Assembly: GCA_903861715.1 (NCBI GenBank)
Contig: CAIOVI010000019.1
Location: 5,936 to 69,935 of the forward strand
DNA: 64,000 nt
Direction: 5' to 3'
Source: an uncultured bacterium
Lineage (GTDB): Bacteria; Patescibacteriota; Minisyncoccia; Moranbacterales; GWC2-37-73
Positions 21,297-41,485 of this stretch are shown piece by piece. A model generated the notes under the pieces. The model was given only the letters and a program-made list of their open reading frames with translations. It was not told the DNA's origin and searched no databases. A program made the translations under genes and the position numbers. The first letter of the stretch is position 1, and every line of letters begins with the position of its first letter.

Positions 21297-21335
21297 ATGG
21301 AGGCTCAACCTCCATAATGGAGGTTGAGCCTCCAT
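21297..21335. repeat. GGAGG-hairpin palindromic repeat (copy 1): atggaggctcaacctccat a atggaggttgagcctccat
   Basis: Perfect 19-bp inverted arms. Each arm is itself a ggagg/cctcc mini-hairpin. The element is flanked by a T-run and an A-run. Confidence 0.7.
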
Positions 21336-21344
21336 AAAAACACT

Positions 21345-21668
21345 ATGCAACAAATCAAAGAAAAAATTGTGACCCTCAAAGATAAAGGTGCGGAACTTGA
21401 AAGGGAAATTCGTGAAAAAACCTTGGGCTATATTCTCACCAGTTTTGGACTCGTCGCTGGCCTGGCTTGGAACGAAGCCATTAAAGCTTTCATTGAAAGA
21501 TTTTTCTCTGATTCAAGCGGCGGTCTGCTGGCTAAATTTCTCTACGCAATTGTTGTGACCATCGTGGTGGTGCTGATTTCACTTTATTTGACCAGACTTT
21601 TCAAGGTCGACAAAAAAGCCAAAGGCGTTGAAAAAGAGGAGGCAAAGACGGCGAAGAGAACGAAATAG
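21345..21668 (+). CDS. small membrane protein (coiled-coil N-terminus, one or two TM helices, Lys-rich tail)
   Basis: ORF with an ATG start, followed by a clean terminator. Confidence 0.4.
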   Translation: MQQIKEKIVTLKDKGAELEREIREKTLGYILTSFGLVAGLAWNEAIKAFIERFFSDSSGGLLAKFLYAIVVTIVVVLISLYLTRLFKVDKKAKGVEKEEAKTAKRTK

Positions 21669-21678
21669 TTTTTTACTG

Positions 21679-21709
21679 CCACACTACTTCATATGGTAGT
21701 GTTTTTTTG
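21679..21709 (+). terminator. rho-independent terminator
   Basis: acactac / gtagtgt stem followed by T7. Confidence 0.65.
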
Positions 21710-21896
21710 GGTTAAAAAAGTTTAATTTTTGAGAATAACTTGCGTATGGTGGATTGCTTGCATTTTGGGAAAAATTGGGCGATACTGAGCTATGAAATAT
21801 TGACTAGTTTTAGGAAGTTAATTTAATAGGTGGAAATAAGGCAAAGACTAAACTTTCAGAGCACTGAAGGTTCAGTTTTTTTGAAAAAAATTTTCC

Positions 21897-24800
21897 ATGG
21901 AACAAGGAATTTTCAGCAAGCAACAGCTCAAAGATGAACTCAGGCGAATGGTGGGAGCGACGGTATATTCGCGAGGGGTGAGTTATTATCGAGACGATTT
22001 GGTTGGGCAAATCACGTCGCAACTTTTGCAGGGAGGAAAAATAAAGCTCTCGGCTTTTGTGATGGGTTCTGATGAATATAAAACGACTGCAGTTTTTGAT
22101 TTTAGCAAAAATAGTTTCCAAAAATTCATTTGCAGTTGTCCCTATGATTGGGGAGATTGCAAGCACGCCGTGGCGTTGGCGCTCAAATTTTTGGATTTTT
22201 ATGCACAATTTCTGGAGGAAGAAAATATTGTTGAAAATGAAGGCGAAGATTTTGGAGGCAGTTTAGTTTTGTGGCTGAAAAAAATTGCACAAAACAAAAC
22301 ACAAAGCTGGGAAGATGCAGAATATTATGCGGATGAGGATGAGGAAATAGCTGAAGAATATGCGCCAAGAAGCAAAAGTAAAATCAAAATCAAAGATGCG
22401 GAAATTGTGACCTCAAAAAAACAAGAAAATAATGAAATTGCAGATTTGAAAGCTCGGCTCAAATCCATCGGCATTGATGCCGAAAATATTCCGGATTTTG
22501 TGTTGAAAGAACTTGAGAAAAAAGTCTCCGTTGGGAGTTTGCAGCTTGGCGTGCAAGCAGAATCGCTAGAAAAACCAAGGGTGGTGGAAAATCTCGGCGA
22601 GCGTTTTTTGCAAAAATATTGTTTGGTGCTGAAAACTGATTATCAATTCAAAATCGAATTACACGAGAAAAACAAGCCCAACGATAGTTATTGGATGGTT
22701 AATGCTGGCGAATTGTTGGGGCGTGAAAAAAATCAACTTACGGGAAAGCAGAAAGAATTATTGTCAGCCTTAAGTGATGTTAGTGCTTGGTATAATGATG
22801 ATGAGTCAAGTGACTATGGGAAAATTTTAAGCTTAGCGAAAGAAATAGGGGTTAGTATTTTTGCGAATAGCAAAGCTGCTAGCAGTCGGGTGACTTTCAG
22901 GGATGATGGATCCAAATTTAAAGCAAAATTATTTTTCAAAAAAGAATATGATTGGCAGGGCACAGAAAGAGTTGAGCAAGAAAAACTTTTGTTTGGTTTA
23001 GCTGGAGAATTTTTTTTGACCAAGCAAAATAGGATGTATTTGCGAGGGCAATATTTAATTGTGCTTGATAATTTTCAATTAGCAATAATTTCTTTGCCAG
23101 AAATTTTGGCTGGAGCTGTTGGGAAAATTATGAAAAGCATTAGTTATTATCAAAATTATTATTATCAGCCTAATGACAACGAGCTGCTGAATAGAGCTGA
23201 GACAATTTTGGAAGACACGGAAATAATTCGACTTAATGAATTTATCGAAAAAGTCAGGGAACTTTTTGAATTAGAAACTGATTTGTCTGCGAAATTTGAA
23301 ATTAAAGAATTTAAAAAGCTTGGACCTGCAATTATGGTCGACTATGACAATGCTAACCATTTTTTGCAATTGCGCGCCACGATGGATTATGGTTTTGCCA
23401 AGTTTGATGTGGCGCAAATAGTTTATAAATCAATGCGGGGTGGCAAACCAAGTTTTCAAAAAAGATATTTTTCCGGACGCGAAAAATATCACTTGGAAAT
23501 TGTGGGCGACAAAATCAATTATGCGAAAATGGCCTCCAAGGCTGAAATTGCCTTGTTTCGAAAATTTTCTCAAGAGGAGCAATTGGGTTTTTCGAAAACG
23601 GTGCATTGCGTGAAAAAAAGCGTCAAACAAATCGAAAAATTTCAAAGCGAAAATTGGACAAATGTGAAAGCCCTCGGTTACCCCTTGGAATATATTCATG
23701 ACAATTTTGATTTCGTGGAAGAAAACTTCAAAGTTGACTATGACGTTTCTTTTGACAAATCCAATGATTGGTTTGAATTTGATGTGGCTTGCTATTGTGG
23801 GGAAAATAACATCACCCTAGAAGATTTGCAAAAATATATTAAAGATAAACAACAATTTTTGAAATTAGCTGACGGTCGAATTTTAAAAATAACCAACCGT
23901 GCGGAATTGGAAAAATTCGTGCGGATGTTGGAAAGTTTTTATCAAAGAGAAGGCCAAAAATTTGAAGGCAAACTTTTTCACGCCCCAGAACTGGAAGATG
24001 TGCTAACAAGTTCACCGTATTATAGCGGGAAAATTGCCAAGAGTTTTAAGAATTTTATGGCTGAAGCGCAGAGTGGTAAGCCAGTAGAGAAAGTGGCAAT
24101 TCCTGCCAAAATTAAAAAACCTTTGCGCGACTATCAGAAAGATGGCATCAACTGGTTTTATTTTTTGCGCAAATATCGCTTTGGTGGAATTTTGGCTGAT
24201 GACATGGGGTTGGGCAAAACGTTGCAGGCCCTGAGTTTGATTGAAATGAACAAAATCAAAAAGAAACCTTCAATTGTGATTTGTCCGAAAACATTGCTTT
24301 TCAATTGGGAAGATGAAGCCATCAAATTTTTTCCAGCGATGAAAGTTTTGGTCATCAGTGGCGCACCGACCGAAAGACAAGCTCAACTTAAAACTTTGAA
24401 AAAAGTTGACTTGGTGATTACTTCCTATCCTTCAGTCAAAAAAGATCAACTTGAATACGATAAACTGAAATTCAATTATTGCTTTTTGGATGAGGCGCAA
24501 TATATCAAAAATCACAAAACCCAGAACGCTAAAGCCGTTAGAAAAATAAACGCCGACTATCGTTTGGCGCTCACGGGCACACCTTTGGAAAATTCTGTTT
24601 CAGAAATTTGGTCGCTGTTTGAATTTTTGATGCCAGGATTTTTGGGCACTCAGCACGCTTTTGCAGAAAAATTTGAAAGACCCATCATGAAAGAGGCAGA
24701 TAGCACAGCCTTGGAAGCTTTGCGCAAGAAAACAGCCTGCTTTGTGTTGCGTCGCACGAAGGAAAAAGTGCTGAAAGAATTGCCAGCGAAAATTCAACAA

Positions 24801-25511
24801 GTTTCGCATTGCCAACTTGGAAGCGAACAAAATATTTTGTATCAAGAAATTTTGAAGAATGTGAAAAATGATTTAGCCGAGGTGGTGGCGGAAAAAGGTT
24901 TTGCCAAATCGCAGATTCACATTTTGGCAGGGCTGACCAAGTTGCGTCAAGTTTGCAATCATCCAGTCTTGCTCCTGAAAGACAAAAATCACAAAAAATA
25001 TGCTTCCGCTAAATTGGAATTATTCTTGGAATTGGTTGGCGAAATTGTTTCGGCCGGCAGAAAAGTTTTGGTCTTCAGTCAATTCACGCAGATGCTGGAT
25101 ATTTTGGCCAAAGAATTAGAAGAGCAGGAAATTGGCTATCATTATCTGTCTGGCAAAACCAATAACCGCAAAGAATTGGTGCAAGATTTCAACAGCAATG
25201 AAAAAATCCCGGTCTTTTTAATAAGCTTAAAGGCTGGTGGCACGGGGCTTAATCTGACTTCGGCTGACAATGTGATCATCTTTGATCCTTGGTGGAATCC
25301 TAGCGTCGAAAATCAAGCCATTGATCGGGCTCATCGTATTGGTCAGAAAAATTCTGTCAATGTCTATCGCCTGATTGTCAAAGGCACGATTGAGGAAAAA
25401 ATCGTGGCCTTGCAAAACAAGAAAAAATCACTTTTCGACAATATGATCGGCGAAAGCAATGACCTTTTCAGGAAACTCACCTGGTCAGACGTGAAAGAAC
25501 TGTTCCAATAG
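21897..25511 (+). CDS. SNF2-family helicase with N-terminal SWIM zinc finger
   Basis: SWIM CxC...CxH motif (CSCPYDWGDCKHAVA). SNF2 ATPase motifs (LADDMGLGKT, DEAQYIKN, TGTPLEN) and helicase C motifs (QAIDRAHRIGQ). Confidence 0.85.
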   Translation: MEQGIFSKQQLKDELRRMVGATVYSRGVSYYRDDLVGQITSQLLQGGKIKLSAFVMGSDEYKTTAVFDFSKNSFQKFICSCPYDWGDCKHAVALALKFLDFYAQFLEEENIVENEGEDFGGSLVLWLKKIAQNKTQSWEDAEYYADEDEEIAEEYAPRSKSKIKIKDAEIVTSKKQENNEIADLKARLKSIGIDAENIPDFVLKELEKKVSVGSLQLGVQAESLEKPRVVENLGERFLQKYCLVLKTDYQFKIELHEKNKPNDSYWMVNAGELLGREKNQLTGKQKELLSALSDVSAWYNDDESSDYGKILSLAKEIGVSIFANSKAASSRVTFRDDGSKFKAKLFFKKEYDWQGTERVEQEKLLFGLAGEFFLTKQNRMYLRGQYLIVLDNFQLAIISLPEILAGAVGKIMKSISYYQNYYYQPNDNELLNRAETILEDTEIIRLNEFIEKVRELFELETDLSAKFEIKEFKKLGPAIMVDYDNANHFLQLRATMDYGFAKFDVAQIVYKSMRGGKPSFQKRYFSGREKYHLEIVGDKINYAKMASKAEIALFRKFSQEEQLGFSKTVHCVKKSVKQIEKFQSENWTNVKALGYPLEYIHDNFDFVEENFKVDYDVSFDKSNDWFEFDVACYCGENNITLEDLQKYIKDKQQFLKLADGRILKITNRAELEKFVRMLESFYQREGQKFEGKLFHAPELEDVLTSSPYYSGKIAKSFKNFMAEAQSGKPVEKVAIPAKIKKPLRDYQKDGINWFYFLRKYRFGGILADDMGLGKTLQALSLIEMNKIKKKPSIVICPKTLLFNWEDEAIKFFPAMKVLVISGAPTERQAQLKTLKKVDLVITSYPSVKKDQLEYDKLKFNYCFLDEAQYIKNHKTQNAKAVRKINADYRLALTGTPLENSVSEIWSLFEFLMPGFLGTQHAFAEKFERPIMKEADSTALEALRKKTACFVLRRTKEKVLKELPAKIQQVSHCQLGSEQNILYQEILKNVKNDLAEVVAEKGFAKSQIHILAGLTKLRQVCNHPVLLLKDKNHKKYASAKLELFLELVGEIVSAGRKVLVFSQFTQMLDILAKELEEQEIGYHYLSGKTNNRKELVQDFNSNEKIPVFLISLKAGGTGLNLTSADNVIIFDPWWNPSVENQAIDRAHRIGQKNSVNVYRLIVKGTIEEKIVALQNKKKSLFDNMIGESNDLFRKLTWSDVKELFQ

Positions 25512-25702
25512 TAAAATTGATATAGGAAAATTATTCTTTTCAAGCAGCAAAAATGGGAGCAGAGTGGGGATGCGGGTTAATTATGGTTGCTGCGTAGCAG
25601 GCTACGTAACAAACGTAGCAAAATTAAAATAACCCTTATTAGGTAACAGCGTGGTGTGATAAATTACCACATTATCAAAAGTAAAGCGCATTTTTCAAAT
25701 CT

Positions 25703-25742
25703 GACATTTACTTTGATACTCGAAAGTATCAAAGTAAATGTC
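25703..25742. promoter_or_regulatory. perfect 40-bp palindrome (18-bp arms around cgaa) 30 nt upstream of the SEC-C gene start
   Basis: gacatttactttgatact cgaa agtatcaaagtaaatgtc. A second, imperfect copy lies at 26373-26411. Confidence 0.6.
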
Positions 25743-25771
25743 ACCAAATTTAAATTCATAAAAGGAGCACC

Positions 25772-26314
25772 ATGAGCAACAAATTTAACAATCTGAAAGA
25801 AGAAGATTTGATCAAATTTTTGGATGAGGGAAGTTTAAAAGAGGATGAAATTGCTGATTTTATGCAGGCCATGCAGAACAGGGGGCTGGCAGGTTCGATT
25901 ATGCAGTTGGATGACCCAAATTCCAGAGAGGGAAAATCAACTATTGAATATGTGAGCTATCATGAGAAAATTCCGCGGGAATATTTTTTGGAAATGCCAG
26001 AAGGTGAAATCATCAAAGCGCAGAAAACTTTGCTTTCGCAGGATTCCCTGATTGAAGATAAGAAAGTGGCATTGCTGGTTCTGGCTCATGCGAAAAAAGA
26101 GGTGGCACGTGAAGCCTTGCAAAAATATTCTGAAAATCCAAATGAAAGTCTGCGAACTTGGGCAACTTTGGCCTTGCAAGAATGTGAAAGTTTTTTGGAG
26201 AAAAATGAAAATGAAAAACCAAAAATTCTTTTTCAAAAAATCAAAAGCACCAAGCGAAATGACCCTTGCCCATGTGGGTCTGGCAAGAAATTTAAAAAAT
26301 GTTGCTTGGAATAG
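25772..26314 (+). CDS. SEC-C motif protein (helical N-domain, C-terminal CPCGSGKKFKKCC metal-binding tail)
   Basis: Canonical SEC-C motif at the C-terminus. It shares an ALxECExFL helical block with the protein at 40777-41418. Confidence 0.6.
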   Translation: MSNKFNNLKEEDLIKFLDEGSLKEDEIADFMQAMQNRGLAGSIMQLDDPNSREGKSTIEYVSYHEKIPREYFLEMPEGEIIKAQKTLLSQDSLIEDKKVALLVLAHAKKEVAREALQKYSENPNESLRTWATLALQECESFLEKNENEKPKILFQKIKSTKRNDPCPCGSGKKFKKCCLE

Positions 26315-26372
26315 CCTTCAATTTTAATTATTCAGGTTAACAGCTGATCTAGCTTTTCTTTTTTCAAAAGTG

Positions 26373-26411
26373 GCAAACACTTTGATACTCGAAAGTATCA
26401 AAGCAAATGTC
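26373..26411. repeat. second copy of the tttgatactcgaaagtatcaaa palindrome (imperfect outer arms)
   Basis: Core of 24 bp identical to the copy at 25703-25742, followed by the same aaatgtcaccaaa. Confidence 0.6.
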
Positions 26412-26546
26412 ACCAAACTGAGGAAGCTTTTTGGAAAATTATTGTGTCTGAATTCACAGGTTAATATTTTTGGATTATTTTGAAATTGTGTGGTATAATA
26501 TCGATATCAGTTTTTCAACTTTTAAAGGGCTTGGCTTAAAACAAAA

Positions 26547-26969
26547 ATGAAAATTCTTGGCATTATTTTGGCCTCTCTTGCGTTTGCCGGCGTGATCATC
26601 TCACCGTTTTTTTGGTTGGGTTTTTTGCGGGCGAAAAGCGTGGGGCGATATTTGGTTGTGAGTTCAATTTTAACCTTACTATTTTTCTGGTTTTCTTTGA
26701 CATGGCTGTATGATTTTTTATTAAAGCCTGTAAATAGTTATGACGTCCTTTATTATTTTGATAACATATCTTTAGGATATTCATTTATGGTATTTTTTTT
26801 CATAATTATTTCTCCTTTGATTTTCATTAAAATTGTCCAACAAAAATTCACGCTGAAAAGTTTTGCGGGCGGGCTGCTTCTTTCTTTGGTCCTTTTCATT
26901 TCGATTTTCTTGTTTTGGGCGCTGGTGCTGTTGCCACAGGCTTTCAATCAATTGCACAATTATTTTTAG
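26547..26969 (+). CDS. small polytopic membrane protein
   Basis: 140 aa with four hydrophobic helices. Confidence 0.4.
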   Translation: MKILGIILASLAFAGVIISPFFWLGFLRAKSVGRYLVVSSILTLLFFWFSLTWLYDFLLKPVNSYDVLYYFDNISLGYSFMVFFFIIISPLIFIKIVQQKFTLKSFAGGLLLSLVLFISIFLFWALVLLPQAFNQLHNYF

Positions 26970-27060
26970 TTTCTGATCTTAAGCTAACTGCACCTAAAGA
27001 GGCTAAGCCTCTGAGTAATAATTATTTTTTGTTTTCAAAAAGAGGGGGAGCGCATTAGAT

Positions 27061-30000: not shown

Positions 30001-30282
30001 CAAGATGAAGAAACTTTCGTTACTTTTCAAGCAATGCGACAAAGAAATTCTTTTTTCGCCATACTGGCTAGGGCTGACAAAAATTTGTTTAAATTTCTTG
30101 GCGGGCCAATCGTGTTGGGCGCAGAGCGCAATAGCAAACAAGCGGATGCAAATTTTGAGCAGTTGCGTGCTGCTCAAAAAAAGGCTGAAAAAAGCAGGCT
30201 AGCTTTATTGCTCGAATTTGCATTTGCCTTGGCCGCCACAATTTTCTTTGCCCTTAGTTTTTTCAGGGCTCGTTTCAAATAA
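27061..30282 (+). CDS. large secreted / surface-anchored protein with parallel beta-helix N-region, lipase-like alpha/beta-hydrolase domain (GHSMGS), Ser/Asn low-complexity linker and C-terminal TM anchor
   Basis: Signal peptide. Beta-helix-like repeats (NASNG..., SDNRNAG...). VIFIPGIGAS ... VTHSMGSLVAR lipase/PGAP1-like motif. (SN)n tract. Hydrophobic C-terminus. Confidence 0.65.
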   Translation: MRKKIFPGLHLGIAMLVWIFWGVKVAQALVLVTNDVIVPTTWTKANSPYVIQNFIEIKAPLVIEAGTVIKFQNFESDGGPTVPGLGIQSAFTAVGSPLEKIVFTSACDSNYGGDTQQDCSSKMPSRSGSWDSLRVWVGFGQPVLIEYVKILNASNGVTYVNSQCNFSYRDLTVRNTEISFASSAGIALQCVQPILDSLKLTFNYDGIYVSNSVYNYTPKIRNSILSDNRNAGVEAYRYTYFDARYNYWGDASGPYYGYDNQGNTEGPNKSGSGNRIVGTSVLFRPWDKSDPTIPKKPVIFIPGIGASINPDLMIGGVFADNWTMFDHTYDGILKAFKVMGYQEGKNFFIAYYDWRQGNGESAEKYLKPLIKKALTLNDVTQVNLVTHSMGSLVARSYVQSSSYANNVDNLIMIAPPNRGSSDVYTLWEGGYIPKNWSSRTAMVYYLAYLQLINLETSRYNIIHKYIPSLKDLLPVYDFLFPTGKADELKNFFDMQERNDFLLDLNKSVAGLKTKTDLSIILGDKQPTVSKIPFVDSDQAGLWLDGKPSPLDPVRDDASGDGEVLRLSGDIPSNFWAVLNYDHSAIVSKSEKIVADLLGETLTDTFDSPEIKDEIIFWTDAPGDLKVSDPDGASAPKDNNEDTDVRYAQEEGKDGFKIVSVPNVKNGQYHVELQGHENGNYHLATEYVDHKNENQQEAVQVVQTQKDQTQNFVVTVDPKNPVTPIQDVQLQDEIAPTITLQAPEDGKAYANDQILPIVFSVSDNVSKEEDLVVEKYLDDDSQLFEADSIDFAKLALGQHVFWINVYDEAGNYNSVGVSFEVKQAETPSNPPADNGSGNQDQTGGSGGAGGGNQNNGNTDPDSGSNSNGGSNSNSNSNSNSGSQPVTEAVVAPTQSAAAQENSGSNRKKTASHKKKKQIKTISTTTKFIEGGGVTKSSEPIKVLFSSNFNLSKNSEEQQNLFYQVLEENLKGQLLAMEENPIQDEETFVTFQAMRQRNSFFAILARADKNLFKFLGGPIVLGAERNSKQADANFEQLRAAQKKAEKSRLALLLEFAFALAATIFFALSFFRARFK
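29671..29700 (+). repeat. hexanucleotide microsatellite (aattct)x5, in frame, encoding SNSNSN
   Basis: Read directly from the sequence. Confidence 0.8.
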
Positions 30283-30286
30283 AAGT

Positions 30287-30400
30287 GTATTAATACCCCA
30301 GGGCAAGCCTGCCTACCGGTAGGCAGGCCCTGGACCCTTCGGGCTCACATCGATAAAATTGGTGAGGTATCAATCTTTTGTTATCGTCGCTCACTTCGCT
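30287..30400. repeat. structured repeat element A (copy 2, inverted relative to copy 1)
   Basis: Its reverse complement matches 14572-14676, including the 22-bp palindrome. It starts 5 nt after the stop of the upstream gene. Confidence 0.7.
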
Positions 30401-30547
30401 AGATAATAAACATCCAGCCAATGAGCTTAATTATTTTCTGTTACAATATTTCAGTATATTGTAATATCCCACAATTGAAATTTTTAGCTATCGCCCGCCT
30501 GTCACGATATGACATTTCGGGCAGGCAATTATTTTCAACTCTAAAAG

Positions 30548-30619
30548 CTTTTGACTTTGTTACCATACAACTACATATGGTAACGAAGTCAAAAAGTCCA
30601 TTCAACCACATAAGGACAT
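30548..30619. repeat. long hairpin (19-bp arms) plus GTCCAT...CCACATA...GGACAT hairpin, inside a 225-bp segment bounded by 21-bp direct repeats (30474-30494 and 30699-30719)
   Basis: cttttgactttgttaccat ... atggtaacgaagtcaaaaag, then gtccattcaaccacataaggacat. Confidence 0.5.
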
Positions 30620-31992: not shown

Positions 31993-32081
31993 AAAGTTAC
32001 TTGGGTTGAAATTTTTTTTGAATAAAAAAAGAAAGGCAGAGCAACTAGGTTGGTACCTTTCTTATAATAATGCTTCTTTTT

Positions 32082-32339: not shown

Positions 32340-32520
32340 TTCTCAAACATTTATGGTTATTGGAATTTTTTCAAAAAAATAAAAAATGCAAAACTCTGGT
32401 TGTTAAAGACCTAATCTTTTCGTCTTGCTATTATATTTCAAAATGACTCAATAGTTTGGCATATTTTGGAAAATAAGTCAAGCTACGGCCTTCAGTGGTG
32501 TTTTGACGTCACTTCGTTTG

Positions 32521-32549
32521 ACATATTTACAAAAGTTAGGTAAACTACT
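32521..32549 (+). promoter_or_regulatory. candidate promoter for rpsL-rpsG-fusA (TTGACA-17-TAAACT)
   Basis: ttgacatatttacaaaagttaggtaaact lies about 240 nt upstream of rpsL. Confidence 0.4.
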
Positions 32550-32742
32550 TTTGTTAGTCAAGTAGCCAAATTTTTGGCTGTTTTGTTTTAGAAAGTAGTC
32601 AGTCGAGGTTCGTTTCGTTCTGGACGGATTTCCCACAGGCTATGCTTAATTAAAAAATGAACTTATATTTTTCAATTTTGATTTTTGAAATTTAATTCTG
32701 AAAAAGGAGGAATTTCAGCCAAGGGCTGATCAACCTTTGGCG

Positions 32743-32777
32743 GAAATTAGAAATTAGAAATTAGAAATTAGAAATTA
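32743..32777 (+). repeat. tandem heptamer (gaaatta)x5 immediately upstream of rpsL
   Basis: ggaaattagaaattagaaattagaaattagaaattaaag, ending 14 nt before the ATG. Confidence 0.8.
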
Positions 32778-32791
32778 AAGCGAAGCGCACT

Positions 32792-33214
32792 ATGCCAACA
32801 ATCAATCAGTTAGTGAAGAAAGGACGCACATCGTCAACCAAAAAATCAAAGTCACCAGCGATGATGACAATTTTTAACACGCTTCAAAACCGACCGAAGC
32901 AAACTTCGAGTCCGTTTAAGCGTGGAGTTTGCATTAAGGTCAGCACCACCACTCCAAAGAAACCAAACTCAGCGCTGCGAAAAATCGCTCGTGTTCGTTT
33001 GACCAATGGCATGGAAGTCACAGCTTACATCCCAGGAGTTGGACACAATTTGCAAGAGCATTCAATCGTGATGATCCGCGGAGGAAGAGTTAAAGATCTT
33101 CCAGGTGTGCGCTATCACATTGTGCGTGGAGTTTTGGACAGCGCCGGTGTTGACAAACGAAACCAAGGTCGCAGCAAATACGGAGCCAAGAGACCGAAGG
33201 CAAAAACCGAATAA
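32792..33214 (+). CDS. rpsL: 30S ribosomal protein S12
   Basis: [12 protein letters not shown] ... [10 protein letters not shown] is canonical uS12. Confidence 0.95.
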
Positions 33215-33321
33215 TTATATTTAACAGATTAACACTGATATAAAACTGATAAACACTGATCACGGATATCCGTGCTCCGTAAAAATCCGTCAAGGATCTG
33301 TTAAAATCAGTATAAAAAAAT

Positions 33322-33789
33322 ATGGCACGAAGAAAAAGAGTATATAAGAAACAATGGAAAGCTGACTCGAGATATGGAAATGTCTTGGTGGGTCGTTTCA
33401 TTGGCAAAATTTTGCAAGATGGCAAACGAAGTGTGGCTGAAAAAGTTATCTATGAATCTTTTGATATTATTCATGAACGAACCAAAAAAGGCGGTCTGAA
33501 TGTTTTTGAACAAGCAATCAAGAATGTTTCTCCCCTTTTGGAATTGAAATCAAAGCGAGTTGGTGGCGCAAACTATCAAGTTCCGATTCAGGTTTCTGGA
33601 GAACGCCGTCAGACTTTGGCTGTGCGTTGGATTTTGGCAGCTTGCCGCGCGAAGAAGGGCAAGAAAATGGCTGAGAAATTGGCTGATGAATTCATTGACG
33701 CATCAAACAAGGTTGGCAGCGCGATGAAGAAACGCGATGACACTCACCGCATGGCCGAAGCTAACAAAGCTTTTGCACATTTCGCCTAG
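33322..33789 (+). CDS. rpsG: 30S ribosomal protein S7
   Basis: MARRKR ... canonical uS7 sequence. Confidence 0.95.
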   Translation: MARRKRVYKKQWKADSRYGNVLVGRFIGKILQDGKRSVAEKVIYESFDIIHERTKKGGLNVFEQAIKNVSPLLELKSKRVGGANYQVPIQVSGERRQTLAVRWILAACRAKKGKKMAEKLADEFIDASNKVGSAMKKRDDTHRMAEANKAFAHFA

Positions 33790-33861
33790 TTTAAATTTCA
33801 ATAAGACCTATATGACTGTATAGGTCTTATAGGTCTTATTTTTTATCTAACAAAAAAAATT

Positions 33862-35946
33862 ATGTCTCAAGAAAATGACATTTCCAAATTAAGAAACATT
33901 GGCATCATCGCTCACATTGATGGCGGAAAAACCACCACCACGGAGCGTATTTTGTTTTACACTGGGATCACTCACAAAATCGGAGAGGTGCATGAAGGCG
34001 CTGCCACGATGGACTGGATGGAACAAGAACAAGAACGCGGCATCACCATCACTTCTGCGGCCACTAAATGCAGTTGGAAAGGTCATCCAATCAACATCAT
34101 CGACACTCCTGGTCACGTGGACTTCACAGTGGAAGTTGAACGCTCATTGCGCGTGCTGGATGGCGCCGTGGTTATTTTCGATGGCAAAGAAGGCGTGGAA
34201 CCGCAATCTGAAACAGTGTGGCGACAAGCTGACAAATATCACGTGCCGCGTATTTGCTTTGTCAACAAAATTGACAAAGAAGGCGCTGATTTTGATTTTG
34301 TGTTGGGCTCAATTTGGAATCGCTTGACTCCTAATGCTTTGGCGCTGCAAATTCCAATTGGCGAACGCAGTGAATTTTCTGGCGTGGTTGATTTGATGAA
34401 AATGAAAGCCTACACTTTTGAAGGCGAGATGGGCATCAAAGTGGTGGAAAATGAAATTCCAGCTGAACTCGTGGAAAAAGCCAAACAGTGGCGAGAAAAA
34501 ATGATTGAAAAAATTTCTGAAACTGATGATGCTTTGACTGAAAAATATTTGAGTGGCGAAGAAATTTCAACGGAAGAACTGAAAGCTGCTCTCCGTCGAG
34601 GCGTGCTGGCTGCCAAACTTGTGCCAGTTTTCACGGGAACTGCCCTTCGCAACAAAGGCGTGCAATTGGTGCTGGACGCTGTGGTTGACTACTTGCCATC
34701 ACCTTTGGACGTGCCTCCAGTGATTGGAACTAATCCAAAAAATGGCGAAGAAGTTACACGAGCCGCTGATGACAACGAACCTTTTTCAGCCTTGGCTTTC
34801 AAAGTTGCCACCGATCCTTTCGTGGGACAACTAACCTTCTTTCGGGTTTATTCGGGAACTCTCAAGGCTGGTTCATATGTGGTTAATGCCACTAATGGAC
34901 AAAAAGAAAGAATTGGACGAATTTTGCAAATGCATGCCAATCATCGCGAAGAAATTGATGAAATTCGAGCTGGCGGAATCGGCGCCTTGGTGGGACTCAA
35001 AAGCACGACCACTGGTGACACGCTTTGCGATGAACAAAAGCAAATCATTTTGGAAAATATTGTTTTCCCAGAACCTGTGATTGACATTGCGGTGGAACCG
35101 AAGACTAAAGCTGATCAAGAAAAAATGGGACTTGCTCTTCGCAAATTGGCTGGAGAAGATCCAACCTTGCGATTGCGCACCGATGAGGAAAGTGGGCAAA
35201 CCATTATTTCCGGAATGGGCGAGCTTCATCTTGACATCATTATTGATCGCATGAAACGAGAATTTGGAGTGGAAGCTAACATTGGTCAACCGCAAGTGGC
35301 TTATCGCGAAACCATCAAAAGCGAAGCGCAAGCTGAAGGAAAATACATCAAACAGTCTGGAGGACGTGGACAATATGGACATTGCTGGCTCAAAGTGCGT
35401 CCGCAAGAAGAAAAAGGCAAGGGCTATGAATTCTTCGATGAAATTAAAGGTGGAGTTATTCCTCAAGAATACATCACTCCGATTAATAGGGGAGCCAAAG
35501 AAGCTTTGGAAAATGGTGTGTTGGCTGGTTATCCAATGGTGGACGTGATTGTGACCCTTTATGATGGATCTTTCCATGAAGTCGACTCCTCTGAAGCCGC
35601 TTTCAAAATCGCTGGTTCAATGGCCGTGCAAGAAGCGGTCAAACGCGCCAACCCAATCATCTTGGAACCTATTATGAAAGTGGTGGTGACTGTGCCGGAA
35701 CAATTCATGGGTGACATCGTGGGCGACATTAATGCTCGTCGTGGGATGATCAAGGAAATTAATGATCGCGGAGAGGGAAATGCTCGCGTGAAAGAAATTG
35801 AATCTGAAGTTCCCTTGGCCAATATGTTTGGATATGCAACTCAAATGCGATCCATGACTCAAGGACGTGCTTCATATTCCATGGAATTTGCGCACTACAA
35901 CGAAGTGCCAAAGAACGTGGCCGAGACGATTATCGCTAAAAAATAG
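33862..35946 (+). CDS. fusA: elongation factor G
   Basis: [10 protein letters not shown]1 motif, DTPGHVDF, and full five-domain EF-G length. Confidence 0.95.
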
Positions 35947-35989
35947 TTTCCGATGCGAAACTACGAATGAAATACGAATCTACGAAATT

Positions 35990-36016
35990 AAAAAACAGCC
36001 TGCGGGCTGTTTTTTG
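35990..36016 (+). terminator. rho-independent terminator after fusA
   Basis: cagcc tgcg ggctg followed by tttttt. Confidence 0.7.
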
Positions 36017-36058
36017 GTGGGGAAAATAAATAAATCTAAATTTAGCCAACCAACTGTT

Positions 36059-36092
36059 GGAGGCTCAACCTCCATATGGAGGTTGAGCCTCC
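36059..36092. repeat. GGAGG-hairpin palindromic repeat (copy 2)
   Basis: ggaggctcaacctcc atat ggaggttgagcctcc. Confidence 0.7.
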
Positions 36093-36190
36093 TTGCTAGC
36101 ACGCAACTTTATTTGATTTGGCATGCTTGGGGAGATAAAAAAGTTTTCATCATAAAGTAAACTTTCTTGATATTTCAAAAAGTTTAGCTT

Positions 36191-37153
36191 ATGATGAAAA
36201 CAGTGAAATGTGAAATAAATTTTTATTGTTCAAAAAATATGGCACTCTATAATTTACAAAATCATAAGCTTGTAACTATCAAAGAAGAATCATTTAAATT
36301 GGAAAAAGAAATTCAAATAATTACTGAAAAAAATCTTGAATATGTTTTTGGTTTGAAATTTGTAAAATCAGAACTAGCGTTACATAATTTGAGATTTGAT
36401 ACTTTAGCATTCGATGCTGAGAATAAAAGTTTCGTGATCATTGAATATAAAAGAGACAAAAATTTCAGTGTCATAGATCAAGGGTACGCATATCTTTCAT
36501 TAATGCTGAATAATAAGGCCGATTTTATTTTGGAGTATAATGAAAGTGCTAATACCAACTTAAAACGAGATGATGTCGATTGGTCTCAATCAAGGGTGAT
36601 ATTTGTTTCACCAGTTTTTTCAAAATATCAACAGCAAGCCATAAATTTTAGGGATTTACCGATTGAACTGTGGGAAATCACAAAATATCAAAATGATTTA
36701 ATTCAATACGATAGACTGAAGTCTCCAGAAACATCTGAGTCAATCAATAAGATTAGTAAATCAAGTGAAACAGTAGAAAGGGTAACTGAGGAAGTTAGGG
36801 TTTACACGGAAGATGATTATTTAAAAACTGCTGATGAAGAAATAGTAGATCTTTATGAAGAGCTTAAGAATCAAATTTTGAGCTTAGATAACAAAATTGA
36901 AATTGTGCCAAAAAAGAAATATATAGCATTTAAGGCATCTTCTAATTTTATTGATGTATTACCACAGAAGGGTAAGATTAAATGTTGGCTCAATATGCCA
37001 AAAGGGGAATTAAATGATCCTTATGGAATTAGTAGGGATGTTTCTGGAATTGGACACTGGGGCAATGGAGATTATGAGTTTAGTATATCTTCTTCGTCTG
37101 AGTTTATAAATTTGATGCCTTTAATAAAACAAAGTTACGAAAAGAATAAATAG
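36191..37153 (+). CDS. hypothetical protein with a PD-(D/E)xK-like N-terminal nuclease motif and a DUF5655-like C-terminal region
   Basis: FDTLAFD ... VIIEYK fits a D...ExK nuclease core. The C-terminal region resembles DUF5655-type domains. The assignment is tentative. Confidence 0.4.
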   Translation: MMKTVKCEINFYCSKNMALYNLQNHKLVTIKEESFKLEKEIQIITEKNLEYVFGLKFVKSELALHNLRFDTLAFDAENKSFVIIEYKRDKNFSVIDQGYAYLSLMLNNKADFILEYNESANTNLKRDDVDWSQSRVIFVSPVFSKYQQQAINFRDLPIELWEITKYQNDLIQYDRLKSPETSESINKISKSSETVERVTEEVRVYTEDDYLKTADEEIVDLYEELKNQILSLDNKIEIVPKKKYIAFKASSNFIDVLPQKGKIKCWLNMPKGELNDPYGISRDVSGIGHWGNGDYEFSISSSSEFINLMPLIKQSYEKNK

Positions 37154-37275
37154 TCTTATTTTACCAAGCTATCAAATCCTGCCCTCGAGAACTCGAGCTA
37201 TTTCAAAAAACAAAAAGCGTGTCAAAAAAATGCATATTTAGATAGTAAAGTTTCATTTTGAGCCTGATGAGAACC

Positions 37276-37301
37276 AGACCCATATATTAATATATGGGTC
37301 T
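37276..37301. repeat. perfect 26-bp palindrome of the CCATATAT family
   Basis: agacccatatattaatatatgggtct equals its own reverse complement. Confidence 0.6.
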
Positions 37302-37542
37302 GAATGAAAATTTATTAGGCACTGTAAAATGCACATGAGTTGTGCTGAAAATTTTTCTCTTGAGTTGTTAAAATTTGGCAATTGCCAAAAAATAACAACT
37401 TTTGCAAGCTTGGAATTTTTTTGGATATGTTAATTTTGGTAAATATGCGAGATTTGGCATATCTATTTTTTTAGTTGCATTTACTAGGTTTTGTTGTTAT
37501 TTTATAGGGGTGAGAAAATAATAATTCAGAAAATATAAGCTT

Positions 37543-38649
37543 ATGAAAAAGCATGAACTGCGAGAATGTATTGAAAAAATAAAGACAGGAAGCAAGGAAG
37601 AAATCAAACTTGCCAATAAAGCGCTTGAAAAAATTTGGGATGATTCTGACAGGGAATCGGCTGATCGAAAAGAGTTTCTTGAAATGTTTATTTCTGAATT
37701 CGGAAACTTTGAAGCTATTAAAAATGAGAGCAACAAGATTGCCTTCATTGGATCTTTGAAATATGCGTTTATGTCCGTGGATCAAGATGACCGCAATTTT
37801 GAAGCTTGCGCACGATTCGTGTTGTATTGTATGACAAATCCCTCTGGGCATATAAGGCAAGCTATAATCCATGTAGGTATCTATCTGATTCATTTTTTGC
37901 GTGCGTCTTTCAGCGATTTCAGAAAAAATGAGCAAGATGAGAAACTTATTTTGAAAAACCAAGAAAGAATTGGCAAGTTCATAACTGAATTGGATGCAAT
38001 GCTGGAACATTTTTATGAGAGAAAATACAAACGTTTTAAATACATTAGCAGTTTGCCACCGAGTGCGTATAAAAGTTTGGAAATCCTTAGAAATCAGCTT
38101 CTTTGCAGTGAGTACTATCAGAAAATATTTGAGGAATATCAAAACAAGAGATTGCGCACGGTTTTGCCGCAGCTTGTTTTGAAATATACGCAATTAGGTA
38201 TTAATACGGTTGAAGACGGATTTGTCTGTTCTCTTTGCCAGCGCAGAAAAAAGCGTTTAGGATCTTCAAATCCGTTGGCTAAAAAGCCATTGATAATTTG
38301 CGAGGACTGCACAATTGATGAATATATGAAAGATTATGGCTACAAAACTCGAGCCGCTGCCGCAGCTCGCAGAAGAAGAATTTTTGATGTGGGATATTTG
38401 TTGCAAGATTTACTAGTGGATCGATATTTAGCTGAAAATAATAAAAAACATATTAGGGAATTAAGTGAGCATGAGACTGAGCAGCTTTTTATGCTTGGGG
38501 CAGGTATGTACAATGAGCTTTTTGATAAAGGCGATAAAATTTTTCTTGAGGAAATTTTTAATCAAAAAGAAATCGAAGAAAAATTACAAGCAACTTTGGA
38601 TAAAGGTGAATTTGATTGGGATTTTTTCAAAGCTAATTTGGAGCAATAA
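37543..38649 (+). CDS. hypothetical protein (368 aa) with an internal CxxC...CxxC zinc-ribbon-like segment
   Basis: CSLCQRRKK ... CEDCTIDEY. No catalytic motif was recognised. Confidence 0.45.
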   Translation: MKKHELRECIEKIKTGSKEEIKLANKALEKIWDDSDRESADRKEFLEMFISEFGNFEAIKNESNKIAFIGSLKYAFMSVDQDDRNFEACARFVLYCMTNPSGHIRQAIIHVGIYLIHFLRASFSDFRKNEQDEKLILKNQERIGKFITELDAMLEHFYERKYKRFKYISSLPPSAYKSLEILRNQLLCSEYYQKIFEEYQNKRLRTVLPQLVLKYTQLGINTVEDGFVCSLCQRRKKRLGSSNPLAKKPLIICEDCTIDEYMKDYGYKTRAAAAARRRRIFDVGYLLQDLLVDRYLAENNKKHIRELSEHETEQLFMLGAGMYNELFDKGDKIFLEEIFNQKEIEEKLQATLDKGEFDWDFFKANLEQ

Positions 38650-38718
38650 AAGGGGGATGGGAATATAATTTTAAAGGAAGAGATTGTCTTAAATTTTAAA
38701 ATGTGCTAGATTGTTACT

Positions 38719-39039
38719 ATGGAAACGCAGATAACCGACCAAAAAATAGCTGAAATTGCCAAGCAAATTGCTGAGCAACAACAACCAGAAAAGATTATTC
38801 TTTTTGGTTCTTATGCTTGGGGAAAACCGCACAAAGATTCTGATGTGGATTTGTTTGTGGTGAAAAAAACTAACGACACTCGAAAAACTGCTCAGGAGAT
38901 TAATCAATTGTTTTTTCCCAGATTCTTTCCAATGGACGTGGTTGTTTACACTCCTTTTCAATTGGAAAAGGAGCTTAATTTGGAGGAACCTTTTGCTTTG
39001 AAAATAATCAACGAAGGCAGAATTTTATTTCAAAATTAA
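38719..39039 (+). CDS. minimal nucleotidyltransferase (MntA/HI0073-like antitoxin-type NTase)
   Basis: LFGSYAWGKPHKDSDVDLFVV contains the GS...DxD NTase fold motif. Confidence 0.75.
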   Translation: METQITDQKIAEIAKQIAEQQQPEKIILFGSYAWGKPHKDSDVDLFVVKKTNDTRKTAQEINQLFFPRFFPMDVVVYTPFQLEKELNLEEPFALKIINEGRILFQN

Positions 39040-39044
39040 AAGCA

Positions 39045-39446
39045 ATGAAAGAAGAAAATAAAAAAATTGTGCTTGAGCGTTGGTTTAAGAAAGCCCAAGA
39101 AGATGAGCTTAATGCTGATTCTATTTTGAGGCATCGCGATGGCACTCCTGGCGTAGTGTGTTTTCTTGCACAACAATTGGCAGAAAAATATTTGAAAGCC
39201 TGTCTGATTTCTTTTGATTTGGAAATCTTGAAAGTGCATGATCTTTTGAGGTTGATTTCAGTTTTGGAAAGCAGTGCTTCAGAAATAAAAATTTTAAGCA
39301 ATGAGGCAAATCTTTTGAATCAATTTTATATCGAAACTCGCTATGTGGGTGATTATCCCGATTTTTCCTGGGAGGATGCAGAGAAAGCCTATGAAGCAGC
39401 CAAAAAAATCAAGGAGTTTGTTTTGAGGGAAATCACGGAGAAATAG
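39045..39446 (+). CDS. HEPN domain protein (HepT-like partner of the upstream NTase)
   Basis: Helical protein of about 130 aa immediately downstream of the NTase, with a 5-nt gap. The Rx4-6H-like region is near the C-terminus. Confidence 0.65.
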   Translation: MKEENKKIVLERWFKKAQEDELNADSILRHRDGTPGVVCFLAQQLAEKYLKACLISFDLEILKVHDLLRLISVLESSASEIKILSNEANLLNQFYIETRYVGDYPDFSWEDAEKAYEAAKKIKEFVLREITEK

Positions 39447-39710
39447 CTTTCATGAAGCATGGAACACAAAACATGGAACATGGAAGCAAAAATTCAAATA
39501 TACGTTTAAAGGCAGTCTCGTAAGGACTGTTTTTTTGTTGCGAGCAAGCCATTTTTTGGACTTATCCACAGGTGGCGATTGACAGTGATATTGAAGAAGT
39601 GTTAAACTATCATTATTGGGCAAGCGGCCGCAAGCTCAGGCTAATAAAATTAAAATTAAAAATCCAAGTTAAGTTTTAGCTTTGATAACAAAATAATTTC
39701 GTTACCATTT

Positions 39711-39745
39711 GGGAGTTCGACTCCCATTGGGGGAGTCAAACTCCC
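39711..39745. repeat. GGAGG-hairpin palindromic repeat (copy 3, variant gggag/ctccc)
   Basis: gggagttcgactccc attgg gggagtcaaactccc. Confidence 0.65.
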
Positions 39746-39801
39746 TTGAGATGATAACGTTTGCTATCTTGATATAAAATAGAATTTAACTGGGCAAAAA
39801 A

Positions 39802-40056
39802 ATGAGCAACTATCAAAACTCCGCTCAAGGCGGAAACAATGTGTCTGAAAAAGTTTTTTCCAAAATGCTTCGCGCAGGAGGCAAAAATTATTTCTTTGAT
39901 GTCAAAAAAGCCAGCAATGGCAGCAACTATCTGACCGTGGCAGAGTCCTACAAAAATCAGCAAGGCCAGCAAGTCACCAATCGAGTGATGCTTTTCAAAG
40001 ATCATTTTCAAGATTTTTTCGCTTCACTGCAGGAAGCCAGCAACTTTTTGAAGTGA
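39802..40056 (+). CDS. DUF3276 (bacterial PUR-alpha-like ssDNA/RNA-binding) protein
   Basis: KNYFFDVKKASNGSNYLTVAES is the typical PUR-like repeat signature. Confidence 0.55.
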   Translation: MSNYQNSAQGGNNVSEKVFSKMLRAGGKNYFFDVKKASNGSNYLTVAESYKNQQGQQVTNRVMLFKDHFQDFFASLQEASNFLK

Positions 40057-40535
40057 AAATTGACATTGTTAATTGGCAGTTATATTATATCAATATGAAA
40101 AACCAAACCAAAAAAACTGAAGAAAAAGTTTATACCATGGGAGAAGTCGGCTCTTTGCTGGAAAGCATGGACGGTACCATGAAGATGATGTCAGAAAATT
40201 ATGTCGGTCTTGTGAAAACTCAGGATAAAATTCTTGCGGTTCAGTATGATATGAAAAATCAACTTGAACGAGTTGAAATTAGACTCAGTGGCGTCGAGGG
40301 CGGGCTTATTGGTGTCGAGGGCAGGCTCAGTGGTGTCGAAGGCAGGCTTAGTGGTGTCGAGGGAAGATTGGATGGAGTTGAGCACCGACTTGAAAAAGTT
40401 GAAACCAAAATCGACAGGCTGCAAGATGATATGGTGGAAGTGAAGTTTGAACTCAAGAAGAAAGTTGCTGTGGATGATTTCGAAAAATTGGAAAAGCGAG
40501 TCGTCAAGCTCGAAAAACTTTCCTATTCGCATTAG
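40053..40535 (+). CDS. coiled-coil protein with tandem heptad repeats (GVEGRLS)x5
   Basis: RLSGVEGGLIGVEGRLSGVEGRLSGVEGRLDGVEHRLE is encoded by 21-nt tandem repeats at about 40279-40385. The start could instead be the ATG at 40095. Confidence 0.5.
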   Translation: MKIDIVNWQLYYINMKNQTKKTEEKVYTMGEVGSLLESMDGTMKMMSENYVGLVKTQDKILAVQYDMKNQLERVEIRLSGVEGGLIGVEGRLSGVEGRLSGVEGRLDGVEHRLEKVETKIDRLQDDMVEVKFELKKKVAVDDFEKLEKRVVKLEKLSYSH

Positions 40536-40698
40536 CAACTTTGCGCCAAAAAATCTTCAGTCAAAATACCTCCAACTTTTTGCTTGGTGGTATTTTTTAT
40601 GGACCAGTCGCAATTTTTTTCAATTATGCTAAAATAAAATCGTGGAAATAATTTTTAAACTAATACAGAATCAACTTAATTAGTTGCAGCTATACGTT

Positions 40699-40733
40699 GG
40701 AGGTTCGACCTCCATTAGGGAGGTCGAACCTCC
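40699..40733. repeat. GGAGG-hairpin palindromic repeat (copy 4, variant ttcga/tcgaa)
   Basis: ggaggttcgacctcc attag ggaggtcgaacctcc. Confidence 0.7.
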
Positions 40734-40776
40734 TTGTAACCAACAGTAATTTAATTGATTTGGTATAAGTAAAAAT

Positions 40777-41418
40777 ATGACAAAAAAGTTAAAAAAAGAA
40801 GCTGAAATTAGTTTGGCAAAGCTTGAGGATAAAGAACTCTTGATAAAAGAGCTTAAAAAATTGGCACATGCTGGCACCAAGGAGGCGGTGGCAAAAATTG
40901 AAAAATATCTTGAAACAGAAAAAGATGCTGAAAGACGAGCTTACGGCGAAATGGCTCTGGAGGAATGTGAATTTTTTCTGTATGAACCAAGGAATGAAAA
41001 AGAGGAAAAGGAGCTGATGCTCTGTGAATTGATCAAGCGTCGCGAGCGTAGAGTTGATGATTTGACGATCAAAATTGACGGCGCTGAAATGAGATTGGAA
41101 AAATTAGCACTAGAAAAGAAGGTGCATAAAAAAGTTTTGGAGTCCAACAAAAGCAAGCAAGAAGATTGGCAGTATTTTTGGTTGGAAGATTTTGTGGGGA
41201 TGGAAAAAAATGAATTGCAAAAAATTGAAGATGAACTTGCCTATGAAGAAGCTTGGATTGAGCAGGCGAAGAAAATGATCACAACCGAAAGATATAAAAA
41301 AATTCCGTTTCGTTTTCTTGGACATTTCGACTTTGGTTTTGATGAAGATTTTCCAGAAGATGATGAGGATGCTTGCGATTGCGGTTGCTGCGAGAGTGAG
41401 GAAGAATTTAAATTTTAA
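40777..41418 (+). CDS. hypothetical coiled-coil protein with acidic Cys-rich C-terminus (paralogous block shared with the SEC-C protein at 25772)
   Basis: The MALEECEFFLYE block matches LALQECESFLEK in the SEC-C protein at 25772. The C-terminus is DEDACDCGCCESEEE. Confidence 0.5.
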   Translation: MTKKLKKEAEISLAKLEDKELLIKELKKLAHAGTKEAVAKIEKYLETEKDAERRAYGEMALEECEFFLYEPRNEKEEKELMLCELIKRRERRVDDLTIKIDGAEMRLEKLALEKKVHKKVLESNKSKQEDWQYFWLEDFVGMEKNELQKIEDELAYEEAWIEQAKKMITTERYKKIPFRFLGHFDFGFDEDFPEDDEDACDCGCCESEEEFKF

Positions 41419-41451
41419 AATTGAATCAATGAAATTGCTGTCGTTTGCAAT

Positions 41452-41485
41452 GAGGCTCAACCTCCATAATGGAGGTTGAGCCTCC
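41452..41485. repeat. GGAGG-hairpin palindromic repeat (copy 5)
   Basis: gaggctcaacctcc ataat ggaggttgagcctcc. Confidence 0.7.

Follow-up and report, generated by a model that had tools for sequence, protein, structure and literature searches.

The DNA analysed here (the window) is a stretch of 64,000 nucleotides from contig CAIOVI010000019.1 of an uncultured bacterium, and the element under study is a short G+C-rich palindrome made of two inverted mini-hairpins, of which five copies (c1 to c5) are dispersed in the window. The EF-G encoded by fusA has homologues with 80-100% identity that are named Candidatus Moranbacteria or Moraniibacteriota, and the DNA of the window was also found in ENA metagenome scaffolds. 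The contigs derive from BUCK21 samples in ENA, ERZ18661299 among them. The genes follow the order rpsL-rpsG-fusA, eight inserted genes, tuf and rpsJ. The inserted genes encode a DUF5655 protein, an unknown 368-aa protein, a nucleotidyltransferase/HEPN pair, a DUF3276 + coiled-coil gene, an unknown 213-aa protein, alanine racemase and EamA. Three relatives (L115, L116 and L117) were used for comparison, whose EF-G is 93-98% identical to that of the window and whose fusA-tuf interval is strongly divergent. The five copies and the genes around them are located as follows.

21299-21333, no strand assigned: c1, a core-only copy, GGAGGCTCAACCTCC-ataat-GGAGGTTGAGCCTCC; perfect palindrome extended to 21292-21340
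33862-35946, + strand: fusA, EF-G
approximately 35947-43944: inserted stretch of 8 kb between fusA and tuf
36030-36125, + strand: c2, core 36059-36092, arms as in c1 with the spacer atat; nhmmer 47.5 bits in the + orientation
39676-39784, no strand assigned: c3, insertion of approximately 109 bp, core 39711-39745, GGGAGTTCGACTCCC-attgg-GGGAGTCAAACTCCC
40659-40771, + strand: c4, 113-bp imperfect palindrome, core 40699-40733, GGAGGTTCGACCTCC-attag-GGAGGTCGAACCTCC
41420-41492, - strand: c5, partial copy, core 41451-41485; 53.4 bits on the - strand
41561-42709: alanine racemase ORF (open reading frame), not tuf
43945-45183: tuf

All five palindromes claimed in the initial annotation are present at about the positions given there, with the cores of c1 and c5 re-delimited. 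It had described every copy as intergenic and four of the five as part of the fusA-tuf island, and both statements hold: each copy lies between + strand genes, and four are found within approximately 5.4 kb of the 8-kb inserted stretch. The next start codon follows 12-98 nt downstream. The spacer between the arms measures 4-5 nt, or 1-3 nt when the A/T bases that lengthen the mini-stems are counted. The palindrome of c1, lengthened by 7 bp of A/T on each side of the core, occupies a 61-bp gap between the stop codon of a PolB-exo-like gene (21283) and the ATG of a DUF5654 gene (21345); in L117, whose exonuclease is 92% identical, the same gap holds an unrelated hairpin in place of c1. The right arm of c2 is conserved (TTGCTAGCACGCAACTTTATTTGATTTGGCAT) and its left arm is degenerate; this copy is situated approximately 25 nt downstream of the intrinsic terminator of fusA, on the left border of a segment that L117 lacks. 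GGGAG/CTCCC stems and a single mismatch between the arms characterize c3, which folds together with its flanks into a long hairpin across 39663-39794 (z = -6.9 and -8.0) and sits inside the loop of a small hairpin that is ancestral (CCAAGTTAA...TTAACTGG). The layout of c4 is TAATACAGAATCAACTTAATTAGTTGCAGCTATACGTT-core-TTGTAACCAACAGTAATTTAATTGATTTGGTATAAG (fold z = -7.4), and its orientation is defined by 117.7 bits on the + strand versus 53.2 on the - strand. The core of c5 begins with T (TGAGG), and one arm of the long element is kept at 41420-41450. Only 5 nt separate the end of c4 from the ATG of the 213-aa gene, and c5 starts 1 nt past the stop codon of the same gene; as c5 abuts this stop codon in the opposite orientation, the gene is bracketed by c4 and c5 as inverted copies.

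Seven occurrences of GGAGGN5CCTCC were counted in the window against 0.01 expected, and three of the double pattern against 0.00 expected (100 shuffles). A pattern-free scan of the 64 kb for a hairpin arm with its inverted copy returned these five elements only and no further GC-rich element. The unit of the element is an arm of 15-19 nt that forms a mini-hairpin with a G-rich stem of 5-7 bp and a loop of 5 nt, and the element usually consists of two such mini-hairpins as an inverted doublet, with a length of 33-36 bp. The loops read YTCRA in the 5' arm and TYGAR in the 3' arm, and the two strands read alike because the arms are inverted copies. The GGAGG/CCTCC blocks are phased 10 bp apart, at positions 1, 11, 21 and 31. 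In single-strand folding of 41-nt segments, one hairpin of 15-19 bp (-25.6 to -35.5 kcal/mol) is favoured over two mini-hairpins (about -16), and copies with their flanks reach z-scores of -4 to -8.

The arms of the doublet co-vary. In copies collected from metagenomes with a pattern that left two degenerate loop positions free to differ between the arms, the inter-arm loops were complementary in 112 of 114 copies versus 32 expected. In the stem variants GGGAG, CGGAG, GGGGA and GGAAG, all four 5-mers are altered together, and three of these variants were located independently of the GGAGG pattern: CGGAG in L117 via the arms, GGGGA in L238 via its position in a transposase gene (RayT, see below), and GGAAG in L241 via its position in the gene for Tgt. 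As the loops are complementary and the stem 5-mers change jointly, both the arm hairpin and the symmetry between the arms are maintained, which agrees with the selection on structure or symmetry suggested in the initial annotation. The likeness to tRNA T-arms that it also noted is upheld for the loop, as YTCRA reads as the first five T-loop bases, and ends there. ARAGORN detected no tRNA in the window (0 genes) and Rfam no family at gathering scores; at the positions of the elements, no Rfam match was obtained at gathering scores or at E <= 1, and the loops have 5 nt and not 7. A tRNA or other known RNA family was therefore rejected.

The palindromes are members of a family that is not confined to the five copies of the window and whose distribution follows a positional logic. 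A scan of public genomes, with one genome per species, returned more than 110 loci, and a metagenome scan added 120 further loci. Perfect palindromes were found almost exclusively in low-GC Patescibacteria (Moran-, Saccharibacteria, Kaiser-, Giovannoni-, Nealson-, Harrisonbacteria and others), while the high-GC matches of the genome scan were non-palindromic coding tandem repeats. Altogether, 145 non-redundant cores were obtained from public genomes and metagenomes, 130 of them with the order YTCRA...TYGAR. The window holds 5 copies per 64 kb, and the fragmented metagenome-assembled genome (MAG) ELA328 at least 13, several of them at contig ends. A phage origin was rejected, as viral contigs gave no matches. 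In the sequences flanking the core, only T at position -1 (64%) and A at position +1 (63%) are enriched.

In related genomes, 58 of 139 cores (42%) lie within long ORFs. Approximately 40 genic copies are read in one always-open frame of 12 codons, GGSTS[I/T/K][M/R]EVEPP, and Pfam matches flank the insert on both sides in MetRS, UvrC, UvrA, PheT, AlaRS, ArgRS, glycosyltransferases and Tgt. Among the genes of the window itself, no in-frame copy was found, degenerate ones included, and none of 120 EF-G homologues carries an in-frame copy, their length differences being due to start-codon calls. Occasional genic copies of repetitive extragenic palindromes (REPs), including copies in uvrA and uvrB, and in-frame Rickettsia palindromic elements (RPEs) have already been reported (PMC3733652). 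The genic copies bear directly on the idea of a dimeric binding site that was raised in the initial annotation. Perfect dyad symmetry, the exact 10-bp phasing of the blocks and the position of the window copies 12-98 nt upstream of the next start codon would suit an operator or activator, that is, a double-stranded DNA site for a dimeric or tetrameric regulator. Such a site fits poorly with in-frame copies in dozens of unrelated genes, many of them housekeeping genes, and with copies between convergent genes. The stem variants alter the supposed recognition sequence yet stay self-complementary, and they co-exist in one genome, as c3 (GGGAG) does with the GGAGG copies of the window. The neighbouring genes have no common function either, and a regulator site is thus regarded as improbable. 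A promoter module was rejected, as the distance between the TTGnnn that follows the core and the closest -10-like hexamer is 21-24 nt and copies also occur between convergent genes and in ORFs.

Intergenic copies favour co-directional and convergent gaps and are rare in divergent gaps (3 of 67, compared with a background of 73 of 525; Fisher p = 0.03), and published REP families likewise avoid divergent gaps (PMC3733652). This preference, together with the very stable folds of the core and the z-scores of -4 to -8 with flanks, could also be read as the mark of RNA elements, either bidirectional terminators or hairpins that stabilize mRNA 3' ends, kept by selection at gene ends, and published REPs are thought to work in this manner (PMC3733652). 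The hairpins, however, are not followed by a T-tract (c1 has T's before and A's after it), and fusA is already ended by a canonical terminator upstream of c2. In addition, 58 of the 139 copies reside in translated genes, and near-identical sequence at unrelated loci of different genomes needs a copying mechanism beside selection. RNA elements are therefore an unlikely primary explanation. The palindromes may affect transcripts, and intergenic copies could, as a side effect, act as terminators or in RNA stability.

Insertion polymorphism was observed at several sites. At c3, the window has approximately 109 bases (39676-39784) more than L115, L116 and L117; in the orthologous position, upstream of the DUF3276 gene, all three relatives retain the small hairpin in its uninserted form. 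The c3 boundaries gave no exact target site or inserted length. c2 and the DUF5655 gene are present in the window and in L116 and absent from L117, in which the junction directly follows the fusA terminator, and an AAATAAA repeat occurs at both junctions of the c2/DUF5655 block. A block of 3.2 kb (40599-43802) is also lacking in L117, and c4 lies approximately 60 bp inside its left edge. In Tgt homologues with 83-86% identity, the site after GSLFVWKN is empty (L242, with the empty site taken from P0252), filled with a GGAGG doublet (L126) or filled with a GGAAG doublet (L241). L087 was considered as an orthologous copy downstream of fusA and rejected, as its 694-codon ORF encodes a truncated membrane protein and not EF-G.

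As a separate observation, the Tgt proteins of Moranbacteria and Parcubacteria (P0241-P0360) range from 357 to 449 aa because short inserts specific to particular lineages occur in large numbers at several sites (e.g., SALGGPASGW, GLTSSRLEVRPR and FQISNEFQNSKLKNSKID). Certain of these inserts resemble translations of other palindromic repeats.

The variable blocks next to c2 and c4 raise the question of integron attC-like sites, at which the initial annotation had hinted. GCTCAAC and GTTGAGC formally match RYYYAAC and GTTRRRY, the same-strand genes of the island vary in content between close relatives, and blocks that only the lineage of the window has contain c2 and c4 close to their left edges, so that the palindromes could mark gene cassettes. 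The scanned parts of the window encode no integrase and no transposase, the elements stand 5' and not 3' of the inserted ORFs, and c5 is inverted. The core-like heptamers are hairpin loops in the middle of the arms and not outer R boxes, and elsewhere the family occurs within ORFs and around RAYT genes (REP-associated tyrosine transposases, see below). attC sites do share imperfect palindromes between same-strand genes in a variable region, but differ in the presence of an integrase, in orientation and in position relative to the ORFs. The chance that the palindromes are attC-like is considered negligible.

Several copies are longer than the core. The arms of the long, c4-type element are TAATACnnAATCAACTTAATTAGTGGTAGnTAnnCGTT and TTGCAACCACCAGTAATTTAATTGATTyGGTATwA, and CGTT/GTT next to the core is seen in these long copies only. 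The element was also found in L018, L049 (twice), L060, L061, L070, L087, L099, L103, L116, L190 and L208, and its arms reappear in MAG ELA328 and further bins, at unrelated loci and with a defined orientation (118-125 bits versus 53-65 on the opposite strand). A palindromic extension past the 35-bp core is no better than in shuffled flank pairs for 92 of 139 copies, and L117 has c4-type arms around a different core (CGGAG). The 35-bp doublet is the shared module and the long arms are lineage-specific; c3 belongs to a different sub-family with its own long stem. The long copies nevertheless invite comparison with ordinary MITEs (miniature transposable elements with inverted repeats), i.e., deletion derivatives of a DDE-type insertion sequence (IS) that move via terminal inverted repeats and carry the GGAGG core as an internal passenger. 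Their length of 113 bp, their ends (TAATAC..AATCAA / TTGATT..GTATTA), which resemble terminal inverted repeats, their identity of 85-95% at unrelated loci in several MAGs, and the inverted placement of c4 and c5 around one gene agree with such an origin. For the family as a whole, such an origin is regarded as unlikely in view of the 92 of 139 copies without extension, the different core within the same arms in L117, the lack of a consistent target-site duplication and the lack of a parent IS or DDE transposase in about 240 loci. The bracketed 213-aa protein is a charged, coiled-coil-like protein that has no family match and is not encoded beside other copies, for which reasons it was also rejected as a novel transposase. 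A DDE-type MITE is possible for the 113-bp arms only. In this respect, the 109-113-bp imperfect palindromes of c3 and c4 in transcribed intergenic DNA are similar to long-hairpin MITEs such as Correia/NEMIS and ERIC, from which they differ in that the conserved module is the 35-bp core and not the arms and in that neither a TA duplication nor a DDE parent was seen.

The initial annotation had aptly pointed to a tyrosine recombinase or transposase, as related genomes do contain a RAYT-type HUH transposase of the Y1 (tyrosine) class. Homologues, termed RayT here, occur in 13 pattern-derived loci, which is by a rough estimate tenfold above the expectation for one gene per genome of approximately 1 Mb. 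In six of the pattern-derived loci, the doublet lies in frame within a protein of 216-245 aa with the PF01797 (Y1_Tnp) domain, just ahead of the HUH strand LVEIxxYCLNPNHxHF (HUH motif NPNHxHF). The family comprises 5345 homologues at E <= 1e-10, many of them named Moranbacteria or Parcubacteria, and a part is annotated as 'REP element-mobilizing transposase RayT' by JGI. The sole NCBIfam match is 'REP-associated tyrosine transposase' with 25-33 bits, under the cut-off of 80 bits. Since a sequence-only PDB search with the RayT profile yielded chance matches alone, a fold search was needed. The AlphaFold (AF2) model (pLDDT 87, pTM 0.85), in which the residues encoded by the palindrome form the only low-confidence loop, found its best PDB match in 4ER8_A (E = 6.5e-7), a complex of the E. 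coli RAYT with a REP hairpin, followed by the TnpA proteins of IS608 and ISDra2 (2VJV, 2A6M, 2XM3) with E of about 5e-4.

The palindrome types GGAGG, GGAAG, GGGGA, CGGAG and GGACG were all encountered at the same codon position of RayT, and one sub-family carries a single hairpin there. A palindrome with arms of 14 nt or more is compatible with 45 of 112 site windows, compared to 3 of 336 control windows. Doublets are also physically associated with the gene from outside, as in the following loci.

L047: doublet 7087-7118, RayT ORF 7123-7782, doublet 7794-7825; GGAGG on both flanks
L228: doublet 547-582, RayT ORF 607-1302, doublet 1329-1363; GGAGG on both flanks
L175: RayT gene with GGAGG doublets on both flanks

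In L124, L193, L195 and L213, a doublet follows 3-17 nt past the RayT stop codon. Extra palindrome copies amount to 0.28 per kb in RayT loci versus 0.038 per kb elsewhere. The gene is syntenic between L238 and L239 and appears to be single-copy; this conserved synteny is as expected for a vertically inherited RAYT.

Taken together, the palindromes are probably (we estimate a probability of about 70%) a REP/REPIN-type repeat family with a RAYT-like system in Candidatus Moranbacteria and neighbouring lineages of the Candidate Phyla Radiation (CPR), a REPIN being an inverted REP doublet. The likeness extends to the E. coli REP-TnpA_REP system (PDB 4ER8), the Pseudomonas pairs and the families of a published survey (PMC3733652): short G+C-rich hairpins mostly arranged as head-to-head dimers, dispersed copies that appear to be numerous and to favour positions 3' of genes and that are rare between divergent genes, and a gene with the RAYT fold (Y1 HUH) that is flanked by repeats in related genomes, apparently single-copy and syntenic. 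The present family differs in its very compact doublet, whose arms are 3-6 nt apart and perfectly complementary, in its far larger genic share (42%), in the in-frame copy within the RAYT-like gene itself, found in one conserved loop in many lineages, and in its CPR host, with the RAYT score of 25-33 bits below the 80-bit cut-off of NCBIfam. Several observations weigh against the assignment to REP/REPIN-RAYT systems. The GTAG/CGTC tag of most described REPs is absent from the flank logo, and a genic share of 42% is unusual for REPs. No RAYT homologue, transposase or integrase was found in the 64-kb window or in the L115-L117 loci, so that the link of a RAYT to the genome of the window is by family and not direct. 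The RayT genes of L238 and L239 contain the internal palindrome, and no dispersed copies occur within 10 kb on either side of them. The single empty-site comparison in Tgt gave no clean target-site signature or fixed inserted length, and c4 may owe its 113-bp arms to a MITE-like vehicle of separate nature.

Two further systems are close to the REP/REPIN-RAYT assignment. IS200/IS605 elements such as IS608 and ISDra2 share the Y1 HUH transposase fold, and it is established that their mechanism involves recognising small hairpins in single-stranded DNA. In contrast to the ends of these elements, the repeats described here are not sub-terminal parts of a gene-carrying mobile element, and the transposase gene lies in conserved chromosomal synteny. 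RPEs, reportedly described by Ogata et al. in 2000, are said to lie between genes and in frame in functional protein genes, to which they add a short peptide. They are mostly 100-150 bp long, and we know of no established transposase partner. Intergenic and in-frame genic palindromes in small host genomes are common to both families, whereas the unit of the present family is 35 bp plus one flanking base, encodes 12 aa and is physically linked to a RAYT-like gene. Features of RPEs are summarised in PMC3733652.

If the system works like REP/RAYT and IS200/IS605, the RAYT-like Y1 HUH transposase would most likely recognise the hairpins in single-stranded form, and its HUH/Tyr active site would then cleave and rejoin them, so that they would be copied or moved. 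This mechanism draws on established knowledge of these families; we infer that the RAYT homologue mobilises the palindromes and that the window's own genome encodes a RAYT gene as well. Surviving copies would be filtered by selection, which would explain the depletion in divergent gaps and the dominance of the open frame in genes. Copies would persist at sites of little harm: positions 3' of genes, the fusA-tuf island and other stretches of recently acquired DNA, and, in the always-open frame, surface loops of proteins. A more far-reaching proposal, which we put forward tentatively and rate below even odds, is that this RAYT lineage of the CPR keeps its own cognate hairpin, single or doublet, in its coding sequence, in a conserved surface loop before the HUH strand. 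The palindrome would co-evolve with the gene and serve as the master copy of translatable REPINs that spread into intergenic DNA and essential genes. If this is true, it would be the first link between RPE-like selfish DNA in protein genes and a defined HUH enzyme, and gene and recognition site would form one inseparable unit.

No paper was found in the literature search that joins RAYT or REPIN to the CPR or names the EVEPP peptide in this context; within the literature searched, no REP/REPIN-RAYT system is reported from this phylum. Three traits are unusual: the double hairpin is very compact and perfectly symmetric, essential genes frequently carry in-frame copies, and a copy is kept within the RAYT-like gene. 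CPR bacteria are ultra-small, with genomes of approximately 1 Mb that are regarded as streamlined. A streamlined lineage nonetheless carries an active-looking selfish repeat that reaches genes for aminoacyl-tRNA synthetases and DNA repair. The copy within the gene makes the co-evolution of transposase and hairpin readable from sequence, in a compact REPIN-RAYT pair of an uncultivated phylum, and the family could help to explain the origin of in-frame palindromic insertions of the Rickettsia RPE type. For practical purposes, MAG assemblies break at the repeats, as in ELA328, where copies lie at the ends of several contigs, the 12-residue inserts disturb protein family models and alignments, and the copies mark strain-level insertion polymorphisms and variable islands.

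The fusA-tuf interval itself (window 35947-43944, L115, L116 and L117) is a hot spot of change in gene content, with 4 to 11 genes; that of L115 is rearranged, with secA after it. Between the window and L116, identity is 99.7% for the DUF5655 protein and 95% for EF-G, which suggests recent exchange. A toxin-antitoxin-like nucleotidyltransferase/HEPN pair (window 38719-39446) replaces a different nucleotidyltransferase/HepT pair (L116 13491-14115, L117 12266-12893). A separate perfect palindrome, CACTACCATACTACTTCAT..ATGAAGTAGTATGGTAGTG, is located 3' of the coiled-coil gene in L116 (approximately 15180-15230) and L117 (approximately 13960-14010) and is missing at the orthologous place in the window (40535-40660).

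Other repeats were also detected in the window. A second, unrelated repeat of approximately 105-125 bp is present between 46480 and 54051 in at least 12 copies of the same orientation with 85-99% identity (for example 48627-48769, 49078-49206, 51031-51156, 52144-52266 and 53924-54051). It sits between the ribosomal-protein genes of the S10/spc operon, and each copy ends at the next start codon (...AATTAGGATATATG). A 122-bp repeat with 87-91% identity, found downstream of genes at 14568-14689, at 30277-30397 (inverted) and in L115 at 21598-21718, contains the perfect palindrome GCCTGCCTACCGGTAGGCAGGC. A ComEC-like competence domain (14925-16388) and a metallo-beta-lactamase domain (16688-17566) are encoded by two ORFs approximately 300 bp apart. 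Scaffold L001 is otherwise identical to the window; at approximately 31995-32049, two alignment pieces overlap and about 100 bp of L001 are unaligned, which suggests a difference in tandem-repeat copy number between samples.

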